64,000 nt of DNA from an uncultured Paraprevotella sp. GTDB lineage: Bacteria; Bacteroidota; Bacteroidia; Bacteroidales; Bacteroidaceae. The notes beneath the pieces were generated by a model. It saw only the letters and a list, made by a program, of their open reading frames with translations, did no database searches and was not told where the DNA came from. Each line of letters opens with the position of its first letter. Within the stretch, counting starts at the first letter, position 1. The stretch covers positions 2,933 to 66,932 of the forward strand of contig CALUIS010000016.1 in NCBI GenBank assembly GCA_944320765.1. The letters run 5' to 3'. Shown in pieces: positions 5,328 through 60,314 of the stretch. A program made the translations under genes and the position numbers.

Positions 5328-6501
5328 TATATCCGTATTTTGTTATATCCATTTTTTTGAGTAGAGCCATTAAAACATCTACAATAATACTGTTTCCTGC
5401 TTGTTTATATGTTTCCGTATCAGAACAAACTATTTTGAAAGAGTCATCAAAACCCATAAGTCGAAGACATTCACGTGGAGTAAGTTTTCTAAACCTTCCA
5501 AATCGTTTGTCTATATCTTTCGAATCGGCAACAATCATTTGTTCTGTTTTGCAATCCAATGGACGAATGGCATAAAGTTCAGGATGAAAATCTGTATAAT
5601 ATGTTTCTTCATAATCTGCCAATCTAAAAAGATATTCATCTGTCTTTATTGTACTTACATCGCATATAAGTTTAGGATGAAATATGAAGTCGCCATGCCA
5701 ATTGAACTGTTGATTTCGTTTTTGGCAAAGAAGTACATCCCCATTTATTTGTGTGTAACTTTTTTGATGATTAATAGTTCTTGTTATAAAGTTTACCCCT
5801 TTTTGTTTTAGTAAATACTTCCTATCAAATTGAGACTGAAGAAAGTCATAAACAGTTCTTGTTAATGGTATTGGTGCGGGATACTTGAACTCGGTCTCTT
5901 TCTTAAATCCTATGCAATATAGACGCTCACGGCTTTGTGGTATACCATAATCTTTCCCATTTAACACTTGGAAATATACATCATAACCACAGTCATTTTC
6001 AAACGTGCTTTTAATTATTTCCCAAGTTTTCCCCTTGTCATGACTAAGCATACCTTTGACATTCTCAAAGATAAAGACTTTTGGTTGGCATTCTATAACA
6101 AGACGTGCAAACTCTCTGAATAAAGTTCCTCTTGTGTCTTCAAACCCGCCATGTTTACCTCGGAGAGAAAAAGCCTGACAAGGGGCTCCTCCAACAAAAA
6201 GATCCACACTCCCTTTAAACGGACGAGCATCCATATTGTGAATGTCAGAATGCCACTGCTTTTCCGATATGTTGTAATTTGCAAAATATGCTTTTTTACA
6301 GTTTTTATCTATATCACCAGCAAATTGAATTTGACTTTTAAGACCTAGTCTATATAAAGAATGTTCAATAGCTCCTATTCCGCTAAAAGAAGTTGCAAGT
6401 CTAATTGTCCTCTCAGGATGAGAGAATTTTGAGAATTGCCAATCGGTAGTGAAATCTATATTTGCAGATGAGTTTTGTATTTCAGAATACTTATTTTTCA
6501 T
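5320..6501 (-). CDS. DNA (cytosine-5) methyltransferase, copy 2
   Basis: Motif I FSGIGA, motif IV GGAPCQAFS, motif VI ENVKG, motif VIII QSRERLY, motifs IX/X RKLTPRECLRLMGF and QAGNSIIVDV. Confidence 0.93.
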   Translation of the reverse strand: MKNKYSEIQNSSANIDFTTDWQFSKFSHPERTIRLATSFSGIGAIEHSLYRLGLKSQIQFAGDIDKNCKKAYFANYNISEKQWHSDIHNMDARPFKGSVDLFVGGAPCQAFSLRGKHGGFEDTRGTLFREFARLVIECQPKVFIFENVKGMLSHDKGKTWEIIKSTFENDCGYDVYFQVLNGKDYGIPQSRERLYCIGFKKETEFKYPAPIPLTRTVYDFLQSQFDRKYLLKQKGVNFITRTINHQKSYTQINGDVLLCQKRNQQFNWHGDFIFHPKLICDVSTIKTDEYLFRLADYEETYYTDFHPELYAIRPLDCKTEQMIVADSKDIDKRFGRFRKLTPRECLRLMGFDDSFKIVCSDTETYKQAGNSIIVDVLMALLKKMDITKYGYNG

Positions 6502-8842: not shown

Positions 8843-10456
8843 TTATGGTTTTACTATGATGCGCCAGTAGCCGCCATGGTCAGCTCCTTCTCTGACAAGT
8901 AATCCTTTGGCTTTTAGATTTGCAATTTGCATTTCAATGGCACGTTTGCTTACTCCAATCTTTTCTGCCATCTTGTCTTGGGATATGGAACCGTCTGATA
9001 TTACAAGGTCGAGAATGCTTTGCGCCGTTCTACCCAATCGTTTCTGTTTCACCGAAGATTTTTGCGAATCACCGAAGTTTTTCACCGAAGATTTTTGTGA
9101 ATCACCGAAGTTTTTCACCGAACTTTCTTCGGTTACACCGAATTTTTCAGCATTTACACCGAACTTTTTCTCCGAACCTTCTCCGTTTACAGAGTACTTT
9201 TTGAGGGTACTGTTTACCCTGTCGGCCACCTCTTCTACGGGGATTCTACCGTTCTCACCCCAATTCAGATTATAGAAAGTGGTGAAGAACGAGGAGGCTT
9301 CTGTTTTGTAACGGGGTTCTTTGCCAGGCAGGAAGTTGGGCAGCTTCTCGGTTAGTTCACGCATCTTGCGCAGGCCGGAACCACGCTTCTCCATATAGTC
9401 AAGCTGGGTAAACATATCAGCGATGACGGGGTTGCGGCGTATGGACGGAACATTGTAAATGTCACGGTCTTGAATCTGTGTGCCGTCAAGCATTGCACCG
9501 GGCGACACCAGCTCCACACGGTCATCATAGATGTCGATATGCACCTCACCGCCCATCACCGTGTAATCCCTATGTATAAGATGGTTGACCAATCCTTCAA
9601 AGATAGCACGGTCGGAATAGTCGGGCAGATTGAGGCGGTAGTTGGGCATCTTGACCCAACCGCTCATCGTGTAGTTCTTGATGAAGTCCATGCCGTACTT
9701 TAAAAGTAGGACGAGGTTTGCCCTATGTTCTATTGAGCTGATGGCATCGTCTTTATAACGCCTCGTCCAACGGGTGCAGAATATGCGCGATTGGAATACG
9801 GTGCAGTTGTCCACAAACAGCAGTCCGGCATTGGTCAGCTTACCATCAGGAGTAACCAGCCCGAACGACTCCAGATATTTGTCGTTCCATTCTTGATGCG
9901 TCTGTTCGCGGAACGTATTGGCAAGGATGATGAAAGAGTGCTTGCTGGCGTCCACTTGCGTAGGAAGCGAATCCCATGTCATGTGCGTACCTTTCAGCAC
10001 CAGCGAGAGGAGTTGCTGCGCATTGCACTCCACACTCTCATTGCCGACCCGTACAAAAGCCGTGCGTGTTCCGTCTTGATAATAGTAATAGGGTGTCAGC
10101 ACTCCGGCCTTGACTTTCACTTCGAGCAGGGTGCGTCCTCCGTGTTCTATCGGTATGAGCTGAACTTCCGGTACAGGGTCAAGCCGCGCTTTTATCATTT
10201 CGCTGATAAAGTCGGCATCCGCCTGTGCGTTCTCCAATCCCACAACTTCACCTTCATCGTTTACACCATAAAACAAGCTGCCGCCCTCCGTATTGGCAAA
10301 GGCCGACACGGATTTCAGCCACGACTTCACTTTCTTGCGTTCCAGCATCTCCTTGAAATCGTAAGACGTACATTCTGCTATAAGTCTGTTATCGTGTATC
10401 TGCATGATTTTCTCGTTGTTGTAAGGGTACAATACTCCCATATCATCTACAAACAT
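8843..10456 (-). CDS. AlbA_2 (Schlafen-like) + HATPase_c_4 (RecG C-terminal-like) + C-terminal HTH protein; probable start 10405
   Basis: YDFKE...KSVSAFANTEGGSLFYGVND (AlbA_2); EGLVNHLIHRDY, DIYDDRVELVSPG and RRNPVIADMFTQLDYMEKRGSGL (HATPase_c_4); QDKMAEKIGVSKRAIEMQIANLK (HTH). Confidence 0.85.
   Translation of the reverse strand: MFVDDMGVLYPYNNEKIMQIHDNRLIAECTSYDFKEMLERKKVKSWLKSVSAFANTEGGSLFYGVNDEGEVVGLENAQADADFISEMIKARLDPVPEVQLIPIEHGGRTLLEVKVKAGVLTPYYYYQDGTRTAFVRVGNESVECNAQQLLSLVLKGTHMTWDSLPTQVDASKHSFIILANTFREQTHQEWNDKYLESFGLVTPDGKLTNAGLLFVDNCTVFQSRIFCTRWTRRYKDDAISSIEHRANLVLLLKYGMDFIKNYTMSGWVKMPNYRLNLPDYSDRAIFEGLVNHLIHRDYTVMGGEVHIDIYDDRVELVSPGAMLDGTQIQDRDIYNVPSIRRNPVIADMFTQLDYMEKRGSGLRKMRELTEKLPNFLPGKEPRYKTEASSFFTTFYNLNWGENGRIPVEEVADRVNSTLKKYSVNGEGSEKKFGVNAEKFGVTEESSVKNFGDSQKSSVKNFGDSQKSSVKQKRLGRTAQSILDLVISDGSISQDKMAEKIGVSKRAIEMQIANLKAKGLLVREGADHGGYWRIIVKP
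9048..9122. repeat. In-frame 33-bp tandem repeat (2.3 copies)
   Basis: TTCACCGAAGATTTTTG(C/T)GAATCACCGAAGTTT at 9048 and 9081, partial third copy at 9114. Encodes SSVKNFGDSQK repeats. Confidence 0.9.
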
Positions 10457-11730: not shown

Positions 11731-13947
11731 TTATTTCAGGTTGTCGATGAAGAAGTTCGTGATGCTCGTGTAGAGGTGGTGGCGGGTGTTGCCGCCCGTG
11801 ATGTTATGGTTGCGGTTGTTGTAGGGGAGCATCATGAACGGCTTGCCGGCCTGTACCAGAGCCTCGGCATATTCCATGGAGTTGCGGAAATGCACGTTGT
11901 CATCCGCCGTGCCGTGGCAAATGAGGAGCTTGCCGTGCAGTTTGTCGGCTTGGCTGATGGGGCTGCGGCCGTATCCGGCGGCATTCTCCTTCGGGGTGCG
12001 CATGAAGCGTTCCGTGTACACTGTGTCATAGTAACGCCAGCAGGTGGGCGGGGCCACGGCCACGCCGGCGGCAAATACCGGGCGTCCTTCGCTCATGCTC
12101 ATCAGGGTGTTGAAGCCGCCGTAGCTCCATCCCCAGATGCCGATGTGCTTGCTGTCCACGTAGGGCAGCGTGCCGAGGTAGAGGGCGGCTTCCACTTGGT
12201 CGCGGGCCTCCCAGTAACCCAGGTTCAGGTAGGTGCATTTCTCGAACTCCGCCCCGCGCCCGCCGGTGCCGCGTCCGTCCACGCAGACGCAGATGAAGCC
12301 TTGCTGGGTCAGGTATTGCTCATAGAGCGTGCCGCCCATGCTGCCTGTGCCCCAAGAGTCAAGCACTTGTTGCGAGCCGGGGCCGCTGTATTGGAACATG
12401 ACTACGGGGTATTTTCTGGAGGCGTCGAAGTCGGCAGGTTTCACCATGTAGCCATTCAGCGTGATGCCGTCGCCCGTAGTGAACTGGAAAAACTCGCGCG
12501 CGCCCAGCCCTTGTGAGGCCAGCTTATCCGCTAAAGTCTGGTTGTCCTCCAGCACCTTCAGGGTCTTGCCGCTGCGGCTGCACAGCGAGGTGACGTAGGG
12601 CGTGCGGATGTTGGAATAAACATCCATGTAGTATTTCAGATTCTTGCTGAAGATGGCGTTGTGTTCACCTTCTTCGGCGGAGAGTTTCACGGTTTTTCCG
12701 TTGCCGTTGCTTTTGTAGATGGCCGTATGCGTCGGGTCGTCCGCATGGTTGGCGGAGAAGTAGAAGCAGCCTTCGGCGGTGTCGTAGCCGTAGAAGCTCT
12801 TGACGATGAGGCGGTCGTCCGTCATCTTTTTCACTAACGTTCCGTTTAGGTCGTAGAGGTACAGGTGGTTGAATCCGTCACGTTCGCTGGTCAGCACGAA
12901 ACGTCCCGGATAGAAGGCCAGGTTGCGGAACACGTTCTCGTTGACGTATTTGTCCACTTCGTCGCGCAGGATTTTCTTGCACTCCGTGGAGCGCGGGTTG
13001 GCCATGTACACCTCCAGGCAGTCCTGGTGGCGGTTCAGGGTGAAGACGGCCAGTTTGGACGGGTCGTCGGTGAACCGGATGCGGGGGATGTAGCTGTCCG
13101 CTTCGAGGGGGAGCTTCATGGTCCGGATGACGCGGGCCTTGATGTCGAACGTCTGCACGCTGACGGTGGAGTTCGTGGTGCCGGCCATGGGGTATTTGTA
13201 TTCATAGCGTCCCGGATATTCGGCGTATTCCTCCTTGGCGGGATGGCTGCCCTTGTACCACGGGAAGGAGAAGGTGCGTACCTGGCTCTCGTCGTAGCGT
13301 ATCCAGGCGAGCATGGTGTTGTCGGCGTTGAAGTCGAAGGAGCGGTTGTTGCTGAACTCTTCTTCGTTCACCCAGTCGGGGATGCCGTTGATGACCCGGT
13401 TGAATTCCCCGTCCTTGGTCACCTGGCTTTCGCTGTTGTTGAACAGCAGTTTGACGAGGAAGAGGTTGCCCTCACGCACGAAGGCCACGAGGTTGCCGTC
13501 CGGCGAGAATTTGGGTGACTGCTGCGGGCCGCCGTCCGAGAGCGGCTCAAGCGTGCCGTTGGCGATGTCGTACAGGTAGTACACGGCGGTGAAGGAATGC
13601 CGGTAGATGGGTTTCGTCTCGGTTTGTATTAGGATTTTCTTCTCGTCCGGCGACAGGATGTAGCCGTCGATGCTTTCCAGTTTCACGTCGCGGGCCGTGG
13701 CCACGTCGAACAGCACGTCTTTTTGTTGTCCGTTCCGGAAGGAGTAGGTGACGATTTGCTTGTGGTCGTCGCTCAGGCGGGAGTAGGTTTCCCCGTCGTT
13801 GAGCGGGTTAACGCCGTTGATGCGCTTGGCGGCGTACTCGCCCGAGCAGATGTCTTTCAGGGAAAGGCCTTCGGCCTGTGAATGCATGGGGAAGAGGGCC
13901 ATCATGCATCCGATAAGGAATGTCGAAATCTTTTTCATACGCTTCAA
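11731..13947 (-). CDS. Dipeptidyl peptidase IV (S9B); probable start 13938
   Basis: Signal peptide, DPPIV_N propeller (NGIPDWVNEEE, YKYPMAG), catalytic GIWGWSYGGF, HGTADDNVH and NRNHNI. Confidence 0.92.
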   Translation of the reverse strand: MKRMKKISTFLIGCMMALFPMHSQAEGLSLKDICSGEYAAKRINGVNPLNDGETYSRLSDDHKQIVTYSFRNGQQKDVLFDVATARDVKLESIDGYILSPDEKKILIQTETKPIYRHSFTAVYYLYDIANGTLEPLSDGGPQQSPKFSPDGNLVAFVREGNLFLVKLLFNNSESQVTKDGEFNRVINGIPDWVNEEEFSNNRSFDFNADNTMLAWIRYDESQVRTFSFPWYKGSHPAKEEYAEYPGRYEYKYPMAGTTNSTVSVQTFDIKARVIRTMKLPLEADSYIPRIRFTDDPSKLAVFTLNRHQDCLEVYMANPRSTECKKILRDEVDKYVNENVFRNLAFYPGRFVLTSERDGFNHLYLYDLNGTLVKKMTDDRLIVKSFYGYDTAEGCFYFSANHADDPTHTAIYKSNGNGKTVKLSAEEGEHNAIFSKNLKYYMDVYSNIRTPYVTSLCSRSGKTLKVLEDNQTLADKLASQGLGAREFFQFTTGDGITLNGYMVKPADFDASRKYPVVMFQYSGPGSQQVLDSWGTGSMGGTLYEQYLTQQGFICVCVDGRGTGGRGAEFEKCTYLNLGYWEARDQVEAALYLGTLPYVDSKHIGIWGWSYGGFNTLMSMSEGRPVFAAGVAVAPPTCWRYYDTVYTERFMRTPKENAAGYGRSPISQADKLHGKLLICHGTADDNVHFRNSMEYAEALVQAGKPFMMLPYNNRNHNITGGNTRHHLYTSITNFFIDNLK

Positions 13948-20198: not shown

Positions 20199-22466
20199 TT
20201 ATTTCTTCAGGTCTTCCCACTTCGGGGGGCGTACGCCCATCAGTTCTTCCACGAAGAAGTCGAAGCGCTTGTGTTCGCCGAAGCTCTCGCCCATCGTGTG
20301 GGCGGCCCCGGGCAGCACGACCAGCTCGAAGTCCTTGCCTGCCTTGATGAGGGCGTTGGCCACCTGCAGGGTGGAGGCTGGGTCCACGTTGTCGTCCATC
20401 TCGCCCACCACGAGCATGAGCGGGCGGGTCAGCCGCCAGGCGTTCTCCACGTTGGAGCATTCGACGTAGCTGCTGTCCACGGGGTAGCCCATCCACTGCT
20501 CGTTCCACCAGATTTTGTCCATGCGGTTGTCGTGGCAGCCGCAGCTGGAGTAGGCCGCCTTGTAGAATTCGGGGTGGAAGAGCACGGCGGCCATGGATTC
20601 CTGCCCGCCGGCCGAGCAGCCGTAGATGCCCACGCGGGTGGTGTCCATGCAGGGATATTTTTCCGCTGCGGCCTTGATCCATTGGATACGGTCGGGGAAT
20701 CCGGCGTCCTTCAGGTTCTTGTAGCAAACCTCCTCGAACTTCTTCCCCCGGTAGGAGGTGCCCATGGCGTCCAGCTGCACCACGATGAAGCCCAGTTCGG
20801 CCAGCGCGGTGGTGTAGCCGTTGTAGGGGAGGAAGCTCTTGGGCGTGTAGGCGTCGCCGGGGCCGGAATAGATGTACTCGATGACGGGGTATTTCTTTTG
20901 CGGGTCGAAGTTCGTGGGCCGCTGGATGATGCCCCACATCGGGGTCTTGCCGTCGCGCCCGGGGGCCGTGAAGATTTCCGGGGCCACCCATCCGGCGGAC
21001 CGGATCTGGCTGAGGTCGGCCTGGGCCAAAGTCTGGGGCTGGCCGCCGTCCGTGCTGCGGAGGACGGTGACGGGGGCGCGTTCCACGGTGGAGTATTTGT
21101 CGACGAGTAGGGTGTAGTCCTCGTTGAACACGGCGGAGTGGTTGCCTTCCTCCGGCGTGAGGCAGACCATGTCCTTGCCGTCGAAGCCTATCTTGTAATA
21201 GTGTACGTGGTAGGGGTCTTCCCCGGGATTGACGCCGCTGGCCGTGAAGTAGATGGTCCGGCGTTCCTCGTCCACCTTGAGCACGCGGCGCACCACCCAT
21301 TCGCCTTTCGTGATTTGGCGTTCCACCTTGCCCCGTTCCAGGTCTATCATGTACAAGTGGTTCCAGTTGTCGCGCTCGCTCATCCAGATCATCCGTCGGT
21401 CACCGTCGAGCTTGTGGCGGAACATCCGCTGGTGGTTGACGAACGTGGGGCTGGTTTCTTCCACGAGTGTGCGCACGTGGCCGGTCTCGGCGTCCAGCTC
21501 CAGCACGCGGTACGTCTTGTGGCCCCGCTCGTTGTACTCGAAGGTCAGCGTGCGGCTGTCGGCGTTCCATTCCGGCCCGAACAGGTCATACTGGCGGGCG
21601 AAGAGTTCCGTGGAGGGGATGGTAGCCTTGCCGGTCTCCACGTTGAACGCGCAGGGCACCTTGAAGCGCAGCTCGTCGCCCGGCTTGGCGTACTCCTGCT
21701 GGTGCAGGACGGGCTGGAGCTGGTTCTTGGGCGAGCTTTCCACGTAGTAGACGTAGCGTTTCTGTGCCGGGCGGATTTTGTTGGTGGCCACGTGGCGGCT
21801 GTCCGGGCTCCATCTGATCCAGCTGGAGTAGTAGTTGCCCACCGTGCCGTCGTTGCTGAGGGCGCGTTCGTGGCTGCCGTCGCGGTGGCTGACGTACACG
21901 TTGTCGTTCTTGATGTAGGCCTGCAGCTTGCCGTCCGGCGAGACGACCGGACCGGCCCCCTTCTCGTCGTCCACCTCCATCCAGTGGCGGGGCTTGTGCC
22001 AGGGGGCTTTCTTTATCTCTTCCTTACGGTCCGTTTGCGGATGGCTTCCGAAGGCGTCCCGGATGTTCCAGCGGTATCCCCCGAACTCGAAGGAGACGGT
22101 GGCGGAGTCCGCGCCGAATGCGGAGAGGCGGAGGTTTTTCCGTTGGATGTCCTTTCCGGTCTCGCGGGCCAGCAGTCCGGACAGGGCTTCCATGTCCACG
22201 GCCTTCACCTCAGCCTGAACGTTGCCATCGGAGGTCTGCCCCACGTAGTAGGTGATGCCTTCCGGGGTGTAGGCGGAATAGTGGAACACGCGGTTGCCGT
22301 TCCAGCGGATATCCGCCGGGTCGTCGTACACTTGCGTGGCGTTGAACTTGCCGTAAAGGGAGTAGGCCCGTTGGTAGTCCTCCAGCGTGCCTTGGGCGTG
22401 CAAGTTCATGGCACTAAGGAACAAAGCCTGAAGGATCAGGCCTTTGGTTAAGGTCTTGCAGTTCAT
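20199..22466 (-). CDS. S9-family (DPP IV-like) peptidase
   Basis: Signal peptide (LHA-Q), propeller repeats, YSGPG, nucleophile motif GIYGCSAGG, GEMDDNVDP and GAAH. Confidence 0.85.
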   Translation of the reverse strand: MNCKTLTKGLILQALFLSAMNLHAQGTLEDYQRAYSLYGKFNATQVYDDPADIRWNGNRVFHYSAYTPEGITYYVGQTSDGNVQAEVKAVDMEALSGLLARETGKDIQRKNLRLSAFGADSATVSFEFGGYRWNIRDAFGSHPQTDRKEEIKKAPWHKPRHWMEVDDEKGAGPVVSPDGKLQAYIKNDNVYVSHRDGSHERALSNDGTVGNYYSSWIRWSPDSRHVATNKIRPAQKRYVYYVESSPKNQLQPVLHQQEYAKPGDELRFKVPCAFNVETGKATIPSTELFARQYDLFGPEWNADSRTLTFEYNERGHKTYRVLELDAETGHVRTLVEETSPTFVNHQRMFRHKLDGDRRMIWMSERDNWNHLYMIDLERGKVERQITKGEWVVRRVLKVDEERRTIYFTASGVNPGEDPYHVHYYKIGFDGKDMVCLTPEEGNHSAVFNEDYTLLVDKYSTVERAPVTVLRSTDGGQPQTLAQADLSQIRSAGWVAPEIFTAPGRDGKTPMWGIIQRPTNFDPQKKYPVIEYIYSGPGDAYTPKSFLPYNGYTTALAELGFIVVQLDAMGTSYRGKKFEEVCYKNLKDAGFPDRIQWIKAAAEKYPCMDTTRVGIYGCSAGGQESMAAVLFHPEFYKAAYSSCGCHDNRMDKIWWNEQWMGYPVDSSYVECSNVENAWRLTRPLMLVVGEMDDNVDPASTLQVANALIKAGKDFELVVLPGAAHTMGESFGEHKRFDFFVEELMGVRPPKWEDLKK

Positions 22467-22484
22467 CTTTTATAGGTTTTTTCA

Positions 22485-23984
22485 TTAGTTCTTTTGCCGG
22501 GCCGGACGGGCTTCCGTGTCGCGGATGAGGGTGGCGAACTCCTGCGGCGACACCTCCACCGGGCCGCTCATGAACTCGGGGATGTTGTAGCTGCGCATGA
22601 AACTGCGGTGCATGTCCGGGTCGTCCTGCGGCAGCTCGAACGGCTTGCGCCCCTTTCCGTCCTTGTCGATGTAGGCGATGAAGGGGCGGGTGTAGTTGCC
22701 GTCGTTCCTGCGGCTGCTGAACACGATCCAGCGTCCGTTGCTGCTCCACATGCCTTGGCTCTCAGAGTCGGGCGAGTTGGCTTCTGCCAGGGGACGTGCC
22801 TGCCGCGTGCGCAAGTCCATCAGGTACAGGTCGGCGTCTTTGTGCCAGATGTGGAACACCCCGTATCCGCCCAAGGCGAAGAGGAGGAAACGTCCGTCCG
22901 GCGAGACGCGTGGCATGGTGGCGCTTTTGTTGAGGCCGGCGGCATCGAAGACCAGTTCCGCCGGCCCTACTTCGCGGGTCGCGGGGTCGAAGCTCCGGCG
23001 GTAGAGGTCGTATTTGATGTCCTTGTATCGCGCGATGGTCTCGCTCGTCAGGTCGGCGGCCGTGTCGGTCTGCGCGAAGCGGGCCGAGGCGTAATAGAGG
23101 TGACGGCCGTCCGGGCTCCATCGCGGGAAGACTTCCAGCTCGTCCGGGTCGCCTTTGATGCGGGTCACTTCGTTGCGGTCCACGTCGTAGAGTATCAGAT
23201 CGCTCCGGGTGTCCTGCACTTCCACCTTCTGCAGGTCCAGGGTGTGGAAGGTCTGCCCGGTCTGGTTCACGGAGTAAGCGATGATTTTTTCCGTGGGATG
23301 CCAGTTGGGGTAGACGCCGGCCGAAATCAGCGAGTCGGTCTTGAGGTTCACCTTGGCCAGCTGCCCGTCGTAGGCGATGACCGTGCCGCCCATGTCCTCC
23401 CGCACGTGGAACTGCATACGGGCCGGGTTGTAGTTCTGGTAGGAGTGGCAGTTGATGCACTGGGCGTGTTCCACGTCCGTGTTGATCATGTTGCCGTAGA
23501 TGACGCTTTCGTCAAAGTTGGTCAGGTTCCGCTGGTTCAGGGTCAGGTCCTTGTAGGTGACGTAGGACGGGCTGATGAGGCGGTAGGAGAGGTAAGGGTC
23601 GATGGGTTCTTCGGCCACGTGGAAGGTGAAGGGGCGGCGGCGTGTCCACTTGCCGTCGTGTTCCACGAACACTTCCACCCGCAGGTCTTTTCCTTTGGCG
23701 GTGGCCAGCATTTTTTGCCAACGGCCCACGCCGGGAGTGACTTCACGGTCGTCCGTGGCCCATTCCCCGCCGGGGTAGCTGATGCGTGTCACGTAACGGT
23801 CCGCCGTCTCGTCCACGATGAAATGCAGGGGTGCGATGTTCGGCGGGATGGTCACGCCGGCATAGTCCGGATAGATGTCCGGCAGGTCCCGGCTTTCCGT
23901 GTAAGTGTCCGGCACCTTGGGGGTGCAGCTGAAGAAGAGGGCGGACAACAGTCCGTAAGTGATGGTCTTGGCAATGGCTTTCAT
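22485..23984 (-). CDS. TolB/PD40-like beta-propeller lipoprotein containing a CxxCH motif
   Basis: Lipobox LFFSC; repeats YPNWHP, FPRWSPDG, MPRVSPDG and WSSNGRWIVFSSRR; CINCH at nt 23445-23459. Confidence 0.8.
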   Translation of the reverse strand: MKAIAKTITYGLLSALFFSCTPKVPDTYTESRDLPDIYPDYAGVTIPPNIAPLHFIVDETADRYVTRISYPGGEWATDDREVTPGVGRWQKMLATAKGKDLRVEVFVEHDGKWTRRRPFTFHVAEEPIDPYLSYRLISPSYVTYKDLTLNQRNLTNFDESVIYGNMINTDVEHAQCINCHSYQNYNPARMQFHVREDMGGTVIAYDGQLAKVNLKTDSLISAGVYPNWHPTEKIIAYSVNQTGQTFHTLDLQKVEVQDTRSDLILYDVDRNEVTRIKGDPDELEVFPRWSPDGRHLYYASARFAQTDTAADLTSETIARYKDIKYDLYRRSFDPATREVGPAELVFDAAGLNKSATMPRVSPDGRFLLFALGGYGVFHIWHKDADLYLMDLRTRQARPLAEANSPDSESQGMWSSNGRWIVFSSRRNDGNYTRPFIAYIDKDGKGRKPFELPQDDPDMHRSFMRSYNIPEFMSGPVEVSPQEFATLIRDTEARPARQKN

Positions 23985-44624: not shown

Positions 44625-44821
44625 CACAGAAAAACTGAAAGGGCTTTGCACGTCGGGCTGCAAATGTTTCCAGATTCCGCAGAGGCTGCCGGAGTACTCC
44701 GCGCCAAGTACTGTCGCGGCCTGTGCGGGACGTTTCCCCTGGAGTGGACGGGCGGAGGGGTAAGCGTCGTTCCGGCATCGGGGAGGGCGTGCCGGGATGA
44801 CGCAAAACCAGTGGGATGCGA

Positions 44822-44957
44822 CTGCCCCGCCTGAAAGGGGGGCTGGCCTGAAAGGCCTGAGGGGTCTGACATCCACGGGAACATACCTTGGTAGTATGTC
44901 TTGTAAATGTTAAACCCCTCAGTCGCTTCGCGCCAGCTCCCCTGCAAGGCGGAGCAG
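44822..44957. repeat. REP-like inverted doublet, copy A (solo; inverted relative to B-D)
   Basis: CTGCCCCGCCTGAAAGGGGGGCTGGCCTGAAAGGCCTGAGGGGT-spacer-ACCCCTCAGTCGCTTCGCGCCAGCTCCCCTGCAAGGCGGAGCAG. Confidence 0.9.
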
Positions 44958-45011
44958 GTTTGTGCCGCAATGTCTCGCTACTGGTTGCGCGGCAGGAATG
45001 CCGCACCTCCT

Positions 45012-56936: not shown

Positions 56937-56972
56937 GCTCCCCTGCGAAGCGGGGCAGTTTTTGGCCGCGGG
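56937..56972. repeat. Truncated extra copy of the REP right arm plus flank
   Basis: GCTCCCCTGCGAAGCGGGGCAGTTTTTGGCCGCGGG resembles 57132-57167 GCCCCCCTGCGAGGCGGGGCAGTTTTTGGTTGCGGG. Confidence 0.8.
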
Positions 56973-56987
56973 CTTCCGTTCGGCGAT

Positions 56988-57153
56988 TGCTCCGCCTTGT
57001 AGGGGAGCTGGCCCGTAGGGCCTGAGGGGTTTAACGCGCACGTCAGCAAACTTTTAAAGTCAGCTTTCGTGTTTGTTCCCCTCGTGGGCGTTTTCCTCGT
57101 GGGCGTGAGACCCCCCAGCCGCTTCGCGGCAGCCCCCCTGCGAGGCGGGGCAG
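56988..57153. repeat. REP-like inverted doublet, copy B (left direct repeat of the DUF559 unit)
   Basis: 166 bp; 5 mismatches versus copy C by manual alignment. Confidence 0.95.
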
Positions 57154-57590
57154 TTTTTGGTTGCGGGTTCTTTCTTCTCCTCGAACTCCGTTTGTGACAG
57201 TTCCGCCCGACGTTGCGATACGGCTGTCTGGATTTGTCGGACTACGACAGACATGTTGCGGAACACATCTTCGTTTTCGTAGCGGAGAATCCGGATGCCA
57301 TGTTCGCGATAAAGGTAGTCACTCCTTTGTCGGTCGTGTTCCAGTCCGTCGGGGGAATAGTGGCCGTCTCCGTCCAGTTCTATGCCCAGCCGCAGCTCGT
57401 GGCAGTAGAAGTCCAGGATGTATGGCCCCACGCCATATTGTCTTCTCCATCGGCTACCGTTCATTTGTTTGCCGCGCAGCAATTTCCAGAGTGTCGCTTC
57501 GGCCGGGGTCAGGTTGTGCCGCAGCTCTTTCCGGCGGGCTTTGCCGTCGTATGGATTGTCTGTCTGGTATTTGCTTCGGTCGTATGTCAT
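57060..57590 (-). CDS. DUF559 endonuclease-domain protein (Vsr-like fold)
   Basis: RKELRHNLTPAEATLWKLLR, WRRQYGVGPYILDFYC, LGIELDGDGH, HDRQRSDYL and GIRILRYEN. The last ~31 codons lie within repeat B. Confidence 0.9.
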   Translation of the reverse strand: MTYDRSKYQTDNPYDGKARRKELRHNLTPAEATLWKLLRGKQMNGSRWRRQYGVGPYILDFYCHELRLGIELDGDGHYSPDGLEHDRQRSDYLYREHGIRILRYENEDVFRNMSVVVRQIQTAVSQRRAELSQTEFEEKKEPATKNCPASQGGCREAAGGSHAHEENAHEGNKHES

Positions 57591-57616
57591 CTTACGTTTT
57601 GTTTTGTTTTTATAAC

Positions 57617-57782
57617 TGCTCCGCCTTGTAGGGGAGCTGGCCCGTAGGGCCTGAGGGGTTTGACATTCACGTCAGCAAACTTTTAAAGTCAGCTTTCGTG
57701 TTTGTTCCCCTCGTGGGCGTTTTCCTCGTGGGTGTGAGACCCCCCAGCCGCTTCGCGGCAGCCCCCCTGCGAGGCGGGGCAG
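57617..57782. repeat. REP-like inverted doublet, copy C (right direct repeat of the DUF559 unit)
   Basis: Near-identical to copy B; ends 26 nt before the DUF559 ATG. Confidence 0.95.
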
Positions 57783-57805
57783 TCTTTTTGTCCCTGTGGG
57801 TGGTT

Positions 57806-60101: not shown

Positions 60102-60274
60102 AAAACTGCTCCGCCTCGTAGGGGAGCTGGCCCGTAGGGCCTGAGGGGTTTGACGCGAACGTCAGCATTCTTTTGAAGTCCGCTTCTGTGGGTGTTTCCC
60201 CTCGTGGTGGTTACCGTGGGTGTGAGACCCCTCAGTCGCTTCGCGACAGCTCCCCTGCAAGGCGGAGCAGTTTT
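60102..60274. repeat. REP-like inverted doublet, copy D (solo)
   Basis: Outer arms AAAACTGCTCCGCCT / AGGCGGAGCAGTTTT are perfectly inverted. The left arm is nearly identical to B/C; the spacer is diverged but homologous. Confidence 0.92.
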
Positions 60275-60314
60275 TTGTGTGTGGCTGTCGCTTTACCTAT
60301 TTATATATAGGGCG

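Follow-up and report, generated by a model that had tools for sequence, protein, structure and literature searches.

Two-hairpin repeat arms of an uncultured Paraprevotella sp.: covariation that keeps their shape, and a DUF559 nuclease gene as a possible partner

We have analysed a window of 64,000 nucleotides, by which we mean the whole stretch of DNA considered here, from an uncultured Paraprevotella sp. (contig CALUIS010000016.1, positions 2933-66932; G000:C16 in our numbering). The genome it belongs to has 2.93 Mb, 56% G+C and an estimated completeness of 99.98%. The window contains four repeat elements (A to D), each made of two arms of about 58 nt in inverted orientation and separated by a spacer, which is 26 nt long in A and about 56 nt in B, C and D. 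Element A is located at 44818-44965 (arms 44820-44877 and 44902-44959), B at 56984-57160 (arms 56985-57042 and 57098-57155, with a spacer of 56 nt), C at 57613-57789 (arms 57614-57671 and 57727-57784, 96% identity to B) and D at 60103-60277 (arms 60104-60161 and 60215-60272). In all four the left arm is on the plus strand and belongs to what we call type I, and the right arm is on the minus strand and belongs to type II. Between doublets B and C lies the single DUF559 (Vsr-fold) gene of the genome (57060-57590, minus strand), coding for 176 amino acids with the domain at residues 17-124 (PF04480, E = 7e-27; PDB 3HRL, E = 1e-12). The alignment shows the catalytic D...E-x-D...H pattern, and the last ~33 codons of the gene run into element B.

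From its outer end an arm reads AACT, a first hairpin (H1), a T, a second hairpin (H2) and a tail of the form (C/T)(T/G)GAGGGGT. A single arm folded alone gives H1 plus H2, and element B folded as one strand forms a long stem, out of which its two H2 hairpins project. The H1 consensus is GCTCC(G)CCT-loop-AGGGGAGC, as seen in the left arm of B (GCTCC(G)CCT-TGT-AGGGGAGC, 8 bp with a bulged G, 56989-57008, plus strand). The other H1 hairpins of the window are found at 57618-57637, 60108-60127 and 44824-44843 on the plus strand and at 57132-57151, 57761-57780, 60249-60268 and 44936-44955 on the minus strand. H2 consists of a 5-bp stem closed by a triloop, and its stem distinguishes the two arm types (GGCCC, GGCCT or GCCCC in type I; GTCGC, GCCGC or GGCGC in type II). 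On the plus strand of the window it is GGCCC-GTA-GGGCC in the left arms of B (57010-57022), C (57639-57651) and D (60129-60141) and GGCCT-GAA-AGGCC in the left arm of A (44845-44857). On the minus strand we found GCCGC-GAA-GCGGC in B (57118-57130) and C (57747-57759), GTCGC-GAA-GCGAC in D (60235-60247) and, with one G.A mismatch, GGCGC-GAA-GCGAC in A (44922-44934). The G-tail of the left arm of B is CTGAGGGGT (57022-57030, plus strand), which mirrors the H1 purine strand, with its equivalents at 57651-57659, 60141-60149 and 44857-44865 (plus) and at 57110-57118, 57739-57747, 60227-60235 and 44914-44922 (minus). The region 57010-57131, spanning from the H2 of the left arm of B through the H2 of its right arm, had been singled out by a sequence-only reading of the window, a model's note that described stems with G-N-A triloops and two versions of the upstream stem. 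All eight arms do carry the 5-bp stem and the G-N-A triloop, and both upstream versions, GCTCC(G)CCT/AGGGGAGC and GCCCC(G)CCT/AGGGGGGC, are present as 8 bp with a bulged G and belong to a hairpin that covaries. To the left of B there is also a solo H1-like half arm followed by a T-run (TTTTTGG; 56937-56972, plus strand, 89% identity to the right end of B), which looks like the remnant of an additional arm.

A profile built from the eight window arms and run on the genome with nhmmer detected 82 full arms: 33 pairs of them form inverted doublets, and about 16 arms are solo or partial. Every one of the 33 doublets combines one type I and one type II arm, in either polarity (17 versus 16), and doublets and solo arms are all located between long open reading frames (ORFs). 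A separate observation concerns a 1.7-kb segment duplicated at 99% identity near two contig ends (G000:C12:95235-96788 and G000:C39:7729-9294), where a P-loop gene coding for ~520 amino acids contains a solo arm in its 5' part. Judged by eye only, this gene looks primase/VirE-like and not like a transposase.

The conservation of pairing was assessed in 102 aligned arms, all of them kin, of which this genome (G000) contributed 81 and the congener G017 21, using as controls 500 shuffles and 3' partners slid by 1-3 columns. As the sequence-only reading had anticipated for genome-wide copies, stem sequence varies while pairing is kept in excess of both controls. Paired cells amounted to 97.7% versus 86.9 +/- 0.6% after shuffling, a value reached by none of the 500 shuffles. 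Cells changed on both sides numbered 127 versus 46 +/- 4 (again 0/500), although the arms are related by copying and the independent compensatory events are thus about 8 rather than 127. The covariation score was 0.267, compared with 0.063 at most when the partners were slid. H1, with its one bulged G, is paired in 98.1% of its cells. Two-sided changes affect 5 of the 13 pairs: columns 5/25 (G-C 75, C-G 19) and 7/23 (T-A 85, C-G 10) in H1, and columns 28/38 (G-C 48, T-A 31, C-G 10), 30/36 (C-G 53, G-C 47) and 31/35 (C-G 91, T-A 9) in H2. In G000 alone there are six fully Watson-Crick H2 stems (GGCCC, GTCGC, GGCCT, GCCGC, GCCCC and GTCGT). The two arms of a doublet differ at the covarying positions of H1 and H2, so that the local hairpins are perfect and the pairing of arm to arm would be mismatched. 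A G.A mismatch is present in the master type II arm of G017 (GGCGC...GCGAC), and the copies derived from it re-pair in two ways, to GCGCC or to GTCGC. The repair of this mismatch, the differing arms of the doublets and the folds of B and of single arms argue for active upkeep of pairing.

The B-DUF559-C locus has no DNA-level counterpart among the 30 congeners compared, and at least 23 metagenome contigs encode the identical DUF559 protein at this position. In ten of these contigs (L175-L184) the arms of B and C were invariant and the right arm of D (60215-60272) presented four alleles with many linked differences, each of them internally compensated (H1 with GCTCC, a CTCC-type stem or GCCCC; H2 with GTCGC, GCCCC or GGCGC). 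Since the changes are linked, whole arms have been replaced at a fixed site, which fits conversion or re-insertion rather than stepwise mutation. The left arm of D has a GTTA tetraloop in two metagenome contigs.

Such replacement would also be expected if the fold were under no selection at all, that is, if the arms were terminal inverted repeats read as duplex and their palindromes were kept by quasi-palindrome template switching or by wholesale gene conversion, and much of the covariation count is indeed accounted for by subfamily founders. We regard this as highly improbable. The loops are strand-asymmetric, as on the G-rich strand there are 71 cases of G-N-A and none of T-N-C, and a protein reading the duplex gives no cause for a palindrome of free sequence such as H2. 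Besides, the arms fold individually, and the same mini-hairpin position with the GAA loop recurs with unrelated stems in distant phyla (see below), which supports selection on an intrastrand fold and not on duplex sequence, in line with the earlier suggestion that a DNA structure is selected. Taking all this together, selection at the level of the fold appears very probable.

The triloop itself is less general than had been claimed. Present in all eight window arms, G-N-A is found in 60 of the 81 arms aligned from G000 and in 71 of 102 overall. Type II arms have it in 44 of 48 cases, mostly as GAA, and type I arms in only 27 of 54, with AAC (18) and ATA (4) as frequent replacements. The exact heptamer GCGAAGC appears in 33 of the 102 arms. 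In DNA, triloops of the C-GNA-G kind are hyperstable, and their RNA versions are much weaker (PMC13037366, PMC3201870); GCGNAGC mini-hairpins, far more stable in DNA than their RNA counterparts, are active in single-stranded DNA (PMC13037366).

These properties are relevant to the possibility that the fold acts in RNA, as a terminator, an mRNA 3' stabiliser or a small-RNA-like structure, as has been proposed for REP, ERIC and Correia repeats. The elements are intergenic, with 10 of 32 between convergent genes (an enrichment) and 3 of 32 between divergent genes (a depletion), and the outer ends of some arms are a hairpin followed by a T-run, all of which would suit such a role; the same positional bias is compatible with elements that inserted at 3' ends or into palindromes already there. 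Against a role in RNA, the polarity of the elements relative to the flanking genes is unbiased (12 versus 7), and departures from pairing are 17 G.T versus 15 A.C, without the G.T excess that G.U pairing would leave. At B and C the genes nearby are encoded on the other strand from the hairpin and T-run sites, and the number of terminator-like sites (23) is not in excess of what shuffling gives (19.7). The C-GAA-G triloop is moreover the DNA-stable form while RNA families favour tetraloops (PMC13037366), and the related PIT motifs showed neither promoter nor terminator activity in earlier work quoted in PMC4666352. We consider an RNA function very unlikely and, on this indirect support, the fold is probably read as DNA.

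Downstream of H2, the tail GAGGGG(T) mirrors the H1 purine strand (A)GGGGAG. Seven of the eight mirrored positions give C-G.G, T-A.A or T-A.T triads in 83-97% of the arms (85-99 of 102), and these triads match an antiparallel purine-motif triplex. Covariation of the three strands was mixed. Where H1 changes from G5-C25 to C5-G25 the tail changes from T40 to G40 in 18 of 20 arms, compared with none of the 82 others; where T7-A23 becomes C7-G23 the tail follows in only 2 of 10 arms (the right arms of B and C) and does not in the remaining 8.

Repeats under the names BoxC, PIT and "triplex" have appeared in catalogues since the 1990s, for hundreds of genomes, and to our knowledge they have been given no function, origin or protein partner. 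The TMECO pattern consists of a C-rich stem, a loop of 3-6, a G-rich stem, a loop of 3 and a second G-rich block; it has 3610 occurrences in 262 proteobacterial genomes, forms a triplex in vitro and has no known partner protein or mobility gene (PMC4666352). The arms described here have the C-rich and G-rich stems (in H1) and the second, mirroring G-rich block. In the place of the 3-nt second loop they have a T and the 13-nt H2, 14 nt in total, which makes them a variant and not strict members of this class. They are an H2-bearing, doublet-organised variant of the BoxC/PIT/TMECO kind, a family that the sequence-only reading had not taken into account.

The association of such motifs with DUF559 genes extends well beyond this genome. 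We collected 90 DUF559 loci from many phyla. A repeat shared from flank to flank was found in 64 of the 90 loci and in 2 of 128 controls, for which the same loci were shifted by 1.7 kb. A finder for a hairpin plus mirror tail gave matches on both sides of the gene in 53 of 83 loci versus 0 of 125 controls; when loci with a match on one side only were counted as well, the numbers were 67 of 83 versus 4 of 125. Of 115 nearest motifs, 93 had the tail pointing to the gene. In such genomes the motif was present in 3, 9, 10, 151 or 306 copies (0-1 for the reversed pattern) and DUF559 in 1-4. At 22 DUF559 loci, among them those of Xanthomonadales, Anaerolineales and Brevundimonas, the second loop holds a mini-hairpin, its loop being GAA in 80 of 101 matches and its stem GCCC, GGCC, GTCC, GGCGC, CATGC or CCGCC, among others. 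In Xanthomonadales the stem is GGCC in the upstream arm and GCCC in the downstream one, an asymmetry of the same kind as the two arm types found here. In Escherichia coli K-12 (L137:5195-5250 and 5393-5430; genome positions 1351194-1351429) the end of the only small DUF559 gene, ycjD, falls within a BoxC-like hairpin, and ~160 nt downstream there is a full TMECO-type motif. Upstream of the gene there is no more than a perfect 18-bp palindrome. Beside the DUF559 genes of other relatives within the order Bacteroidales we found none of the arms described here (family 1 from now on), and these genes are flanked by short-loop motifs; one congener (G008) is an example, with a DUF559 gene, a different short-loop motif and no family-1 arms. 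In the literature searched no paper links DUF559 to these repeats, and the only hint was a 2023 enrichment row for predicted inversion targets.

We propose the following explanation. H1 is a C-rich/G-rich hairpin, H2 fills the position that the short second loop (3 nt) has in the classical motif, and the G-tail could fold back onto H1 as an antiparallel purine-motif triplex. H2 would act as a rigid, sequence-free clamp whose ends meet and place the tail beside H1, which would account for conserved pairing in a stem of free sequence; compensating changes would accumulate because only the shape of H1 and H2 matters. The unit would be read when the DNA is single-stranded or extruded, most likely by the small Vsr-fold DUF559 nuclease, whose relatives in many phyla sit between inward-facing arms that appear to be of the same design. 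Binding or cutting at the arms would drive their copying or gene conversion, and the inverted doublets of one type I and one type II arm would resemble REPINs or the Y and Z units of BIMEs. For this explanation as a whole, an arm that is a folded-DNA unit of the BoxC/PIT/TMECO class and is read single-stranded or extruded, most likely by DUF559, we estimate a probability of about 0.5.

Several observations weigh against this proposal. The independent compensations behind the covariation are few, half of the type I arms have loops other than G-N-A, and the tail follows only one of the two H1 changes. The characterised relatives of DUF559, Vsr and I-Bth0305I, act on duplex DNA. Nearest-neighbour DNA folding, with parameters that have no evident special GNA term, gave equal energies for the two strands, so that folding cannot name the functional strand. 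In G000 the arms adjoining the DUF559 gene face away from it, unlike 81% of the other loci. For the TMECO motif, Holder et al. (2015) detected no stable triplex in vivo by DMS footprinting (PMC4666352). The most serious difficulty comes from the congeners. Among the 31 genomes of the genus, the elements were multi-copy in G000, G017 and G044 and present as relics in G016 and G006. G017 and G044, both 99% complete, have at least about 20 matches each, many of them 93-98% alike, and neither the Pfam model nor a protein search found DUF559 in them; the matches to the DUF559 protein in G044 fall only on the tail encoded by the repeat. A small gene between near-identical repeats can drop out of short-read assemblies, so that the absence is serious and not final, and assembly loss in these two genomes is possible. 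The attribution of the arms to DUF559 by the sequence-only reading has thus the strong cross-phylum association on its side and two gene-less congeners with plenty of copies against it, and from these comparisons of sequence we judge DUF559 to be a plausible reader, with the odds tilted slightly against it.

The gene-less congeners would be easier to understand if DUF559 were a passenger, or if it were a homing nuclease for which the repeats serve only as landing pads, and the arms were spread and maintained by some transposase or by replication and recombination at hairpins. That the solved Vsr-like relative, I-Bth0305I, is a homing endonuclease (PMC3424549) points in the same direction, as does the position of the gene in G000 outside the inner slot of the doublets, and arms and an unrelated REP family swap at the same intergenic hot spots. 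The pairing of gene and motif across phyla is very tight for a passenger, though, and unlike an active homing gene this one is single-copy and fixed at one locus across strains. No transposase common to the three element-bearing genomes (G000, G017 and G044) was found either, and the Y1 gene of G017 is flanked by another repeat family and was not detected in G000 or G044. We consider this alternative unlikely.

This Y1_Tnp-like gene of G017 codes for 180 amino acids (L113:2664-3206, within L113:2240-3440; G017:C1, about 21700-22900) and has on both sides the hairpins GGGGGATTTGCAATCCCCC and GGATTCGGAAATCC of this other repeat family, which is the canonical arrangement of REP/RAYT systems. Both the gene and its repeats are absent from G000; in G044 the repeats are present and the gene was not found.

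The surroundings of the family-1 copies in the congeners bear on how the arms may spread. In G017 the copies extend past the arms to GAGGGTGTAGCAAAA...TTTTGCTACACCCTC (flanks L093-L110), and beyond this point their outer flanks have a copy-specific symmetry that is inverted and not direct, as if they had been inserted within pre-existing palindromes. When an insertion of G017 was compared with G044, G006 and G016, the intergenic stretch was unalignable and no clean empty site was obtained. Three sites in syntenic regions of G017 and G044 with 97-98% identity (L125:5116-5578, 9261-9465 and 11938-12375 versus L134-L136) had different repeat families or copy numbers, again with no clean empty site. 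At one of them a family-1 doublet in one species is matched by family-2 repeats in the other, and at another a truncated doublet in one species corresponds to two tandem doublets in the other. Repeat families with no relation to each other re-use these intergenic hot spots. In G044 a multi-copy segment of ~600-660 bp, 92-94% alike and with no match in Pfam, lies between two family-1 doublets at no fewer than three loci (L169:380-1040, L170:690-1350 and L171:365-965) and is absent from G000. The G044 segments of ~660-1000 bp between paired doublets gave no Pfam match.

The locus adds three things to what is known of these repeats: clean covariation evidence that two hairpins per unit are kept for their shape, a structural rationale, by which a mini-hairpin with a DNA-hyperstable triloop occupies the exact place of the classical second loop, and a candidate enzyme that is open to purification. 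A bolder generalisation, that DUF559 nucleases recognise the folded single-stranded unit and are the missing partner of BoxC/PIT/TMECO repeats in many phyla, in a system independent of RAYT, is tentative and in our opinion rather doubtful. If true, bacteria would have a second partnership of repeat and nuclease beside REP/RAYT, and DUF559 would be a rare case of a protein that reads a non-B DNA fold. If the link with DUF559 fails, the repeats stay as a well-described new variant of an orphan family.

Among known systems, the arms had been filed by the sequence-only reading as REP or IS200/IS605-like, and we found no support for this assignment. The 99.98% complete genome has no match to PF01797 (Y1/RAYT), and no conserved GTAG/CGTC tag stands next to the palindrome: the arms start with AACTGC, GTAG is confined to the inside of some loops, and 48 of 81 arms have GAA as their H1 loop. 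Like REP and REPIN elements, they are inverted doublets of palindromic units, high-copy and extragenic. Ends of the IS200/IS605 type were discarded in the absence of a Y1 gene and because their hairpins are on the same strand at both ends, whereas the arms here are inverted repeats, so that each strand holds one arm in its own orientation and the other as its complement. In comparison with a miniature inverted-repeat transposable element (MITE) of a DDE transposon, inverted ends are present, the flank symmetry is inverted and not direct, and we found no parent element. Vsr and the Vsr-like (EDxHD) homing endonucleases such as I-Bth0305I share their fold with the DUF559 protein and differ in having duplex targets or T:G mismatches as substrates; we know of none that is tied to a dispersed repeat family. 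H2 can be compared with the mini-hairpin DNA d(GCGNAGC) (PMC13037366, PMC3201870), as 71 of 102 arms have a hairpin with a C-GNA-G triloop there. Natural mini-hairpins of this kind act in single-stranded DNA at primase sites, while here half of the type I arms have AAC, ATA or other loops and the hairpin would be part of a larger fold and not a priming signal.

The resemblance to REP, BIME and REPIN-RAYT systems (PMC3116915, PMC3337134, PMC3479197) is one of organisation. In both cases there are high-copy extragenic palindromes with compensated stems, inverted doublets built from two unit types (compare Y and Z) and a single-copy nuclease gene bracketed by repeats, and REP units are known to be read as single-stranded DNA hairpins. 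The differences are that the candidate enzyme here has the PD-(D/E)XK Vsr fold and is not an HUH nuclease, and that the present units carry a mirror G-tail. With the BoxC/PIT/TMECO repeats, the closest of all, the arms share the layout itself (C-rich stem, short loop, G-rich stem and a second G-rich block that mirrors it), a dispersed and mostly intergenic distribution, often as inverted pairs, an association with locally unstable intergenic regions, and the previous lack of a known protein partner. They differ from them in the host, as the published census covers (262) proteobacterial genomes, in the bulged G of H1, in their organisation as doublets of ~140-175 bp with two arm types and in the 13-nt mini-hairpin (5 bp and a triloop), with its flanking T's, that replaces the second loop of 3 nt.

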